DNA from: Tubiluchus corallicola
Taxonomy: Eukaryota; Animalia; Priapulida
DNA: 64,000 nt
Direction: 5' to 3'
Assembly (NCBI GenBank): GCA_030141605.1
Contig: JAQGDQ010000072.1
Span: 372,001 to 436,000 of the forward strand
The stretch's first letter is position 1, and each line of letters opens with the position of its first letter. Made by a program: the position numbers and the translations under genes. Below, piece after piece: positions 37,601 to 40,600 of this stretch. Under the pieces are notes generated by a model, which saw nothing but the letters and a program-made list of their open reading frames with translations, did no database searches and had not been told where the DNA came from.

Positions 37601-40600
37601 CAATCGAAGAAGTGCTGACATATGTGCACTTATTAGAACTTCTTTGCGCCCAAACCGACGCTCAAGTAGTTGAATGGCAGTAGCATAGTTAGCCGAGGAA
37701 AGAGGTAACCCGGCTATGGCTGTGCAGCCTCACCGCATAGTTGACCCTTCAAGTGAGTGAACTTCTGCACAGGTGCTAAATGCTCATGAGAATGAACAGC
37801 AGCATCAAACTGCTCCCAGAACGCCAGCCATTCCAAAATCTGGCCATCAAATTTCCGCAGTATCAGCTTAGGTAAACGAGTAAAAGCCGCTGAGCGAGCA
37901 AGTGAATTGTCAGAGAGAGTGTCAGCTCGACTGGCGCCTGCGGCAGGACCAGTGGTAGGATGGTCAGCTGAGGAAACAGGGCCAAGAAACTGATTGGCTT
38001 GATGTAATTCACGTGTAATTCGCCATTTGTACTCATCAACAGATTCGACTTCCTCGTCGAGTGATTCCTGTTCGGCACCAGCGTCTAACAACTGTGACAA
38101 GATGCTGTTGTCTGCTTCAAACAGACGCTCTGCCCTTTCAGTAACAAGTGATAAGAGAAGGCTTACCTCTTCCTTCCTAGGAATCTCTTGATCTAGCTCG
38201 TCAGATAATAAGTTGGTAGCCTTAGTAACTGAAGATCTCAGAGCTCGTCGAACTCGTTTAGTTTTCTCCACTTGCTCCGTCATGTTGACAACAGAAGTAG
38301 AAGTCCTGTGTGGTTATCCCTGTGCGCTGTCTGGGCTCGTATCCAGCTCGAAGGACCATATGTGAAAGTCATGTATGAAGTTGAAGTTGAACACTTATAG
38401 AAAACGAATGAACACTATATTGCATATCTGCACAAAAACTGAAACCGTTTATTATACTAAATACACAGTAAAATACACAAGTAAAATGAAGATCACAACT
38501 GCTGCACTGCACTGAGAGTTTGAGTTAGACAGTGTGTAACATGACTGCATGTCACTGAGAGCGTGACAGAGAGACAGTGGCTAGAAGTGAAATCCAGCCA
38601 GTATATATAGGTAGAGGACTATGCAAAACTTGGCTTCACAAATACCATTACAGTAAAAATAGGGGAGATCCAGTGAGTTTGCATATTCACTGGACCGAGC
38701 AATTGTACTAGGGGTGAGTTTAACTAGTAAAATGTTAAAGTGATTAGTCAATAGATGGCAGCACCTAAAATATACACTACAGTTACAACTGTCACAAAGC
38801 AAACTAATTCAATTCTACCTACTGCAAATTTTATCCACTGTTGTGCAGTGATTTTTGTCTTCAAAATCAGCAGAAAAGCAAAATGGTTACAAAAACAACA
38901 AGAAATTTAGGATTTAAAAATTTTAATTTTAGATACCCCTACAAAAACTTCACTGACTAATATGCATATCAATACCTTTACTTGTATATATATATTGCAG
39001 TTACCACTACATAAAACTATTATTAAACCATCACTGTCAAGCACACATGCAGAAAAATCTGGTTTCTAATCAAATAATAATAAAGTTTAATGGTTAACCA
39101 ATCCTGCTACTTGCATCTTAGGAACTAGCAAATAAACCGAAAACGAATCAGCAATTCAAAATAAATAAAAGAGCAACCCATCTTTTGCTTGATTCTAAAT
39201 ATGTACCTGATATTATTATTTAGGAAGTGTCTTCTGCAGTATGTATAATCATTAGAACCCAATAATTTAATTTTTGAACAAACACAATTAATACTTAATC
39301 AACTTACGACATTCCGGACATGCCTCTGAAAATATTAGCTATTATAGTAACCACCGAACCACCATTTGCTCCAAACCAAGTACTGTATGCTTCACAGGTG
39401 AGACAAACAAAATAATAATGTCATAATATATTGAGCAGGTTAAAAGTAATTAATTTTAACATTGTCAGCACACTGCTGCTTTCAGTTCACTACCCATTCG
39501 GTGCCTATATTTTGTTTTGTACTAAAATGATTTTTTAAAATGCTATTTTTAATCTCATGTATCTAGAATAAACAATTAACATTCTCCAAAGAAACTGCAA
39601 TTGACTTGACAGAACAACTACAGAGAAGTAATCTCCTCAGAAAGCCACAGCTACAGCAACATATCCTACACAACATTTACAGATAGATTACAGCTGCTTA
39701 ATCACAAGCCACTGAGGTGAGATTGGTTTGCTAAAGTTCACACCATAAGTGCATTAGACTGGATATACCTTTCTTTTGCTAACTTTTAGCTTGTTTTGCT
39801 GCTCAAAAATTTTATTCGTTATTTAGCAGATTGCAAGTTTTGAAACATGCAAAAGGTTTCAAGACTCATTGATTTCATTTAATTGTATTTATGGTTCTTT
39901 TATATTTCAAGTGCCGTAATGACTGTGCTAAACAAATATCTGTTGGAAATAAGTAGTGAAGTGAATTGATGGCAGAAATAACTACTTATGATTGCAAAAC
40001 TTACTATACAAAGTTACAGTCCCAAGTGACACAGTTACATCACAAAATAAGTGTGGCAAGAATATAATGAGATCTGGTACTGAAACTGTTGACTTGTTAC
40101 GTATTTAAATATGAGGAACTGTTAGACTAGCAACTTACGCCATGTAGAACATTCCTCTCCACATGTCAGTTATGATGGTTACAATTGATCCACCATGTTT
40201 ACCCATCCATGCATCAAATGCTGAAAGCATATCAGCAAGTTACTGCTAACACAATATCTTCAGCTTTCAGAGCAATTAGGCTGCTTCAATTTATCCACAT
40301 TATTTTTTCTGCTTAATACTATTACAAATATACCAGATGGTAAAAATGTTTATTGGAGAATGGCAGACACACTGTTTAGGCACATCCAGTTAAATGGTTT
40401 AGGTCCTCGTATAGTGCACATTTAACAAGGCAGCCTTAATTTTTCTGCTTAGCTTTTTCAATTAAGTATGGGCAGTTTATCATGATAAAATTTATTGTCA
40501 TGTCGCTTTTTTACTTTTAAGCCACTAGCACAAAATACTATTACAGGTAATAGAAGGCCCAATAACAGGTTACAATGCAGCTATGATGGAAGTTTTTAAG

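Follow-up and report, generated by a model that had tools for sequence, protein, structure and literature searches.

Tandem copies of exon 4 in the PECR gene of Tubiluchus corallicola: a probable exclusive pair with a predicted intronic duplex

The PECR gene of the priapulid Tubiluchus corallicola carries two tandem versions of its fourth coding exon, 4a and 4b. They are likely both live and mutually exclusive, with a choice that is probably biased by a predicted RNA duplex between two intronic elements, D and B, and with nonsense-mediated decay (NMD) as the likely backstop; we put this reading at a little better than even (about 55%). Its parts stand differently: 4b is probably a live exon and, given that it is, D-B has a good chance of being functional. 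The window mentioned below is the whole stretch of DNA analysed (64,000 nucleotides), and its features of interest are collected in Table 1.

Searches with homologous proteins (tblastn) delineate an eight-exon PECR gene on the minus strand, from 47889 to 22677, with a 301-residue product that has no internal stop and ends, whichever exon 4 is used, in SKL, which we take to be a peroxisomal targeting signal. Human PECR (1YXM) is of the same orthologous family and shares this C-terminal SKL. The matches of exon 3 are PECRs throughout, the human protein being found at an E-value of 3e-19, and the PECR of Priapulus caudatus shows the highest identity among the matches listed (68%). The window protein found no clear place in an earlier tree, whose 64 rows did not include Priapulus; a quick tree built from 29 rows after exon 4 had been cut out, without three planned rows whose exon 4 could not be parsed, groups it with Priapulus at an SH-aLRT of 97. 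The closest relatives in both sequence and structure are PECRs, and the protein belongs to this family; its predicted activity is NADPH-dependent enoyl-CoA reduction. No duplicates of the other seven exons were found within the 64-kb window.

Table 1. Exons of the PECR gene and candidate splicing elements, in window coordinates
Feature	Position	Strand	Remarks
PECR coding exon 1	47769..47889	-	ATG at 47889; tblastn with homologues; GTGAGT donor
PECR exon 2	42352..42485	-	134 nt; tblastn; partly covered by a contig of run X2
PECR exon 3	41869..42034	-	166 nt; donor 41869; spliced joint to 40220 in run X2
Element D, candidate docking arm	41360..41385	-	intron 3, 483 nt past the exon-3 donor; inverted repeat
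Predicted hairpin over the 4a acceptor	40221..40270	-	candidate branch point in the loop; second-best partner of D
PECR exon 4a	40139..40220	-	82 nt; copy seen spliced
Element B, candidate selector arm	39456..39481	-	ends 66 nt before the 4b acceptor
AG-free zone and GAAG acceptor of 4b	39390..39472	-	81 nt; acceptor non-consensus
PECR exon 4b	39308..39389	-	82 nt; intact; splicing not seen
PECR exon 5	29546..29642	-	97 nt; acceptor 29642; the HSGAARAG helix starts here
PECR exon 6	24965..25072	-	tblastn with homologues
PECR exon 7	23891..24005	-	tblastn with homologues
PECR exon 8	22677..22759	-	ends in SKL and stop

Exons 4a and 4b have the same length and phase, and each is preceded by AG and followed by GTAAGT. 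They are identical at 51 of 82 nucleotides and at 13 of the 26 residues encoded by whole codons, and the two resulting proteins (301 residues each) differ at 14 of 27 residues. The coordinates, lengths and splice sites that a preliminary description of this DNA had assigned to the two exons, on the minus strand, hold, as do its figure of 50% identity and its positions for the exon-3 donor and the exon-5 acceptor. When each exon was searched by tblastn against the 64 kb, two copies only were found, matching each other at an E-value of about 3e-6, with the next best match at 0.18; likewise, among all open candidates of the form AG-82-GT between exons 3 and 5, only 4a and 4b score positively against both peptides. 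These homologous exons are neighbours, match in length and phase and have canonical splice sites; judging from their sequences, they go back to an old tandem duplication, and the PECR gene that carries them is intact. Just before the 4b acceptor, at 39411-39390 (minus strand), the translation resembles the end of exon 3, and the tblastn alignments extend there; the resemblance may be fortuitous, or it may preserve a hint of the duplicate's origin.

During transcription, the acceptor of 4a, being the nearer, would win by proximity; exon 3 would join 4a, intron 3 and D would be removed together, and 4b, left without D and with a weak GAAG acceptor, would be skipped as 4a joins exon 5. If splicing were delayed until B had been transcribed, D and B could pair, looping out 1.9 kb with 4a and placing the exon-3 side only 66 nt away from the acceptor of 4b, which would yield the 4b form; the 4a acceptor is predicted to lie inside a hairpin as well when D-B forms. 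The kinetic step is an assumption, needed because the equilibrium fold (D-B plus the 4a hairpin) favours 4b, yet the only transcript observed uses 4a. Transcripts containing both exons or neither would run into premature stops and be degraded. By computation, the stop falls at codon 186 (nt 556) when both exons are in, with later junctions up to nt 905, and at codon 153 (nt 457) when neither is, with later junctions up to nt 741. Since these stops precede several junctions, and by well over 55 nt, decay is a plausible backstop, in agreement with the frameshift/NMD route that the preliminary description had proposed on the grounds that 82 is not divisible by 3. That description had also dismissed steric exclusion, rightly. 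Steric exclusion needs an upstream donor that crowds the downstream branch point, at a distance of about 50 nt or less; the 4a-4b intron measures 749 nt, and even if the branch point were placed at the distal limit of the AG-free zone (81 nt), it would still lie more than 660 nt from the 4a donor.

The same description suggested RNA structure as another route, with docking/selector complementarity to be sought in the flanking introns, and the D-B pair was found there. D-B heads the list of inverted repeats in the 13 kb that separate exons 2 and 5; it is 26 nt long and 88% complementary (23/26), with a loop of 1878 nt that contains 4a; D is an upstream element complementary to sequence before the alternative exon. 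As the best inter-intron duplex, it reaches -36.7 kcal/mol, against -23.9 ± 2.7 for shuffled sequences, of which 0/300 come as low. In partition-function folds D-B is almost completely formed, with about 21-22 expected pairs, and the 4a hairpin persists in them. This hairpin (-17.5 to -18 kcal/mol, z -2.5, 4/300 shuffles) is the strongest among eight acceptors tested; the 200-nt region around 4a as a whole is not significant (z -1.08). Two further pairings were considered and rejected: a stem of 39236-39208 with the pyrimidine tract of 4b has little strength (-16.6), in a region that folds worse than its shuffles (z +1.66), and a 20-nt near-palindrome (41846-41827 with 39459-39440) that would extend the D-B bridge has 7 expected pairs, a chance level (546/1000). 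A search of Rfam over 38800-42100 gave 0 matches.

A rather unlikely alternative, and the one that survives best, is that both exons are live and exclusive while D-B is incidental, the choice being decided by splice-site strength, splicing factors and NMD alone. Of 123 equal-sized stretches of the real sequence, 7 reach the strength of D-B, and with the two that are D-B itself set aside, 5 of 121 others, at four places, hold an equally strong duplex. The probability of a chance occurrence is a few percent, which is not negligible. In addition, D and B are known from one sequence, and the length of 82 nt, not a multiple of 3, already makes forms with both exons or neither stop early. On the other side stands the position of the duplex: B ends 66 nt short of the alternative acceptor, and exon 4a is exactly what the two arms enclose. 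Over the 2 kb downstream of D, its best partner is B, before 4b (-34.5 kcal/mol), and its second best is the other acceptor, before 4a (-18.7), with the next at -14.5. Nor are the arms repeated elsewhere: apart from D, nothing in the window matches the 13-nt core of B with at most one mismatch, and the arms are not a local repeat family. Our preference stays with a duplex that biases the choice; as a prediction, the loop-out duplex D-B is well supported, which does not extend to a competition between two selectors.

The case for 4b as a live exon begins with the substitutions that separate the pair. Between 4a and 4b, pS is 0.71 and pN 0.30, corresponding to a dS of about 2.1 (noisy and near saturation), a dN of 0.39 and a dN/dS of about 0.18, whereas neutrality of 4b since the duplication would be expected to give a dN near 1 or more. 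In simulations of the neutral decay of 4a to 19-38% divergence, at most 0.07% of the 20,000 trials per setting passed, that is, retained the frame, both splice dinucleotides and a profile score at the level of 4b. Both results fit a tandem duplicated exon maintained by selection. Similarity between the intron flanks of 4a and 4b is undetectable (60/500 and 496/500 shuffles); the pair is old yet intact, because the flanking introns are no longer detectably similar. The 81-nt AG-free zone at 4b resembles those before exons 6 and 7, and a zone of that length precedes only 8 of 923 non-acceptor intronic AGs. Both exons are under coding constraint, with which a very recent loss of 4b is compatible.

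Direct evidence of splicing comes from the assembled contigs of two runs, X1 and X2, the latter guessed to be RNA. A 289-nt contig of X2 contains the joints 41869-40220 and 40139-29642, both GT-AG, and skips 4b; the short sides are 83 nt at the joint of exon 3 with 4a and 24 nt at that of 4a with exon 5 (the bar of the tool is 31 nt). Because this contig differs from the window at 9 of 168 sites in exon 3 (and at 1 of 83 in 4a), its source is another individual or a close relative. One contig thus splices in 4a. Use of 4b is something we infer from its sequence, since no junction of exon 3 with 4b or of 4b with exon 5 occurs among the assembled contigs of X1 and X2 (one RNA-like run). Of the junctions that the preliminary description had singled out as a check, those of 4a were found and those of 4b were not, and the term 'mutually exclusive' holds to the extent that one contig uses 4a and skips 4b, a transcript containing 4b not having been observed. 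Run X1, which may be the source of the window itself, covers 4b with 0 differences in a 481-nt contig and has no spliced joints in the region of exons 3-5. Contigs of X2 do not cover 4b and those of X1 do not cover element D, gaps that carry no weight. Another X1 contig, less than 90% alike and with loose ends, lies on exon 3 at 41873-41961; it possibly stems from a paralogous PECR or another SDR exon.

That 4b was once used and has recently fallen silent or is negligibly used, so that the gene makes the 4a enzyme only today, seems to us an unlikely reading. It would agree with 4a alone being seen spliced, in a contig that itself skips 4b, and with the non-consensus acceptor of 4b. It would also agree with the profile scores: 44.7 for 4b and 57.4 for 4a, where the minimum of 159 distinct homologous exon-4 peptides is 54.3 (in-sample profile), 4b being the lowest. 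Among the 137 parsable homologues (of 154), 120 are nearer to 4a than to 4b, and 4b has rare residues, such as V where 135/137 homologues have I. A young LTR element lies 530 nt behind 4b. However, the low dN together with the near-saturated dS excludes that 4b has been dead since the duplication, its frame, both splice sites, AG-free zone and 23/26 match to D are all intact, and assembled contigs lose minor variants.

The weakest alternative, and a very improbable one, is a competing docker/selector switch in the style of Dscam exon 6, in which D would alternate between a selector at the 4a acceptor, where pairing would open the 4a hairpin and activate 4a, and B, where pairing would activate 4b: the two best partners of D do lie upstream of 4b and 4a (the latter at -18.7 kcal/mol, 29/1000 shuffles), and the 4a site and B share short words, a layout predicted for a duplicated stem arm by the model of Ivanov and Pervouchine, as far as the available part of PMC6071210 sets it out, but the expected D-4a pairs are 0.0 at both 37 °C and 15 °C in the equilibrium ensemble, even when B is not yet transcribed, the local hairpin winning; the 4a and 4b flanks are not detectably homologous overall; and the p of about 0.03 arose post hoc. 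D and B each hold a short palindrome, which means that the matches of the two to the 4a acceptor do not count separately.

Exclusive exons in tandem whose introns can pair form a class already described. Among the papers listed by the literature searches, judged by title and abstract, none reports exon swapping in PECR, and those centred on the splicing of trans-2-enoyl-CoA reductases concern the mitochondrial MECR; the main texts of PMC8373072 and PMC9741552 contain 0 occurrences of PECR, which their supplements could list. In the available parts of these two papers, tandem duplicated exon substitutions have repeated independent origins in orthologous genes and, as in PECR, adjacent homologous exons of equal length and phase swap one segment. 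Their catalogues, as described there, centre on human and Drosophila, and the second exon of the window PECR is a putative one. In Dscam exon 6, in the account available from PMC6071210, sequence just before a downstream alternative exon has its complement in the upstream intron, and the pairing loops out the upstream variant, which is what D-B resembles; this likeness rests on predicted pairing in one sequence. Unlike Dscam exon 6, the window has two exons and one strong selector, the second pairing being weak and unpopulated at equilibrium. PECR is not classed as a competing docker/selector system, and its layout works like an upstream docker. Human ATE1, with exons 7a and 7b, is similarly an enzyme with two exclusive exons whose intronic pairings hinder a 3' splice site, with the competing R1R3/R3R4 pairings and a 30-kb pairing shown experimentally (PMC7797038, in its available part). 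In the window, by contrast, a local hairpin is predicted to mask the 4a acceptor, and no downstream (bidirectional) pairing rises above background, the best (-22 to -23 kcal/mol) lying at about the mean of shuffled sequences.

What the exchange of exons would do to the enzyme can be approached through a homologue. An AlphaFold model of the Apostichopus homologue, built on a 115-sequence alignment, has a mean pLDDT of 93, and its best match is 1YXM, the only PECR structure found, with a TM-score of about 0.86. In this model, exon 4 spans the end of helix 123-152 (alpha4), strand 154-159 (beta5) and the loop to helix 171-190 (alpha5). This fits the preliminary placement of the segment at the beta5 strand and the following loop, and adds the end of the preceding helix, a point absent from it. 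The location stands; that the segment shapes the substrate pocket, which was given there as established, is for PECR something we only infer. According to the available text of a review of SDRs (PMC2792337), substrate binding occurs mainly in the variable C-terminal region, and Phe replaces the active-site Tyr in human PECR. In both variants encoded by the window, Met occupies the position of the Phe in the 'GFP' of the human loop, a position that would correspond to that of the active-site Tyr. Human PECR converts phytenoyl-CoA to phytanoyl-CoA, according to the part of PMC7829553 available. The difference between 4a and 4b, lying beside the active site, would probably tune substrate range or kinetics.

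Exon swaps of a similar kind appear in PECRs of other species. Of 337 proteins, 305 had a parsable exon 4, giving 319 pairs with near-identical flanks. In five of these pairs, 12-14 residues of exon 4 differ: four pairs come from the nematode Plectus sambesii, and the fifth consists of the RefSeq isoforms X1/X2 of the sea cucumber Apostichopus japonicus; another five, all cross-entry pairs, differ at 3 exon-4 residues. Cluster members were looked up for 30 proteins, which makes the counts of swaps a lower bound. The Apostichopus isoforms (P0213/P0259) differ at residues 144-169 only, and the Plectus entries (P0086/P0100/P0092) are identical except in exon 4, with one gene model that contains both copies in tandem. 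The preliminary description had asked for conservation in relatives; exon-4-only swaps occur in two other phyla. The segment of exon 6 (about residues 202-238) is the sole difference in three Branchiostoma pairs (P0254/P0179, P0169/P0258 and P0256/P0181), and likewise in the Mya isoforms P0009/P0010, which suggests a second, separate exon duplication in PECR. All these cases are database protein entries, not genomic DNA. Priapulus entries show only one exon-4 type, and the vertebrate entries examined show no exon-4 swap. Two candidates for an exon-4 swap were rejected: in Mytilus X1/X4 the differences span several exons, and in Octopus X1/X2 the difference is at the N-terminus.

Whether these pairs share an origin was approached through their residues. 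At sites where both pairs differ, 4a and 4b match the Plectus pair by 8 vs 0 residues according to orientation, and the Apostichopus pair also by 8 vs 0; among 5772 pseudo-pairs made from unrelated exon-4 peptides, 144 are skewed as strongly as that. Separate duplications remain acceptable under AU tests (p 0.21 and 0.60), the comparison of Plectus with Apostichopus favours separate origins, the Plectus tandem model has the exons in reversed order by type relative to the window, and a 27-column exon tree was unresolved. Convergence is at least as likely as a single origin, in line with what is available of PMC9741552. It is doubtful that a single ancient exon-4 pair dates back to early ecdysozoans or bilaterians and has disappeared from vertebrates and from most molluscs, with PECR as a hotspot and splicing as a switch between substrate classes. 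If this were true, the switch might be, for example, between straight-chain and branched phytenoyl-CoA, the dock would be consumed with intron 3 whenever the first exon is chosen, and phyla would have duplicated exactly the exons that line the active site (4 or 6).

The pair adds a metabolic enzyme, from a little-studied animal lineage, to the genes that swap duplicated exons. The PECR genes of at least four further species, spread over four phyla, seem to do likewise: Plectus and Apostichopus through exon 4, Branchiostoma and Mya through exon 6. Natural variants that differ only beside the active site are ready-made pairs for questions of substrate choice in PECR, and D-B offers a precise, testable candidate for the control of splicing by RNA structure outside arthropods and vertebrates.

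The surroundings of the pair are rich in repeats. The intron after 4b holds a BEL/Pao-type LTR retrotransposon (31059-38776) with long terminal repeats that are 94-99% identical, Pfam matches to DUF1759, RVT_1, Peptidase_A17 and DUF5641, and a coding region in several separate frames. Nested in one of its LTRs is a DNA transposon (31521-34135), which we take to be hAT-like, with terminal inverted repeats, an apparent 8-bp target duplication, a match to the Spin-doc zinc finger and a transposase frame interrupted near 33221. A 32-bp tandem array of 30 copies (28582-29546) begins right at the exon-5 donor, and many of its units carry the donor hexamer GTAAGT, so that it may offer a series of decoy donors. 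The intron between coding exons 1 and 2 contains a degraded LINE-like element (43622-46356, plus strand, RVT_1 match). An exon of an NAD-dependent glycerol-3-phosphate dehydrogenase (Pfam PF01210) lies at about 10330-10460 on the plus strand, tail to tail with PECR.

Metagenomic sequences were also compared. None of 80 loci has a tandem exon 4, and no close relative is among them; the three intron-containing loci that span exons 3-5 (L002, L006 and L008) have one exon-4 copy each. Two further loci carry an inverted partial copy of PECR exon 4 just behind exon 4 (L003 at 2178-2234 and L004 at 2939-2995), which may represent a fold-back element or else an error of assembly.
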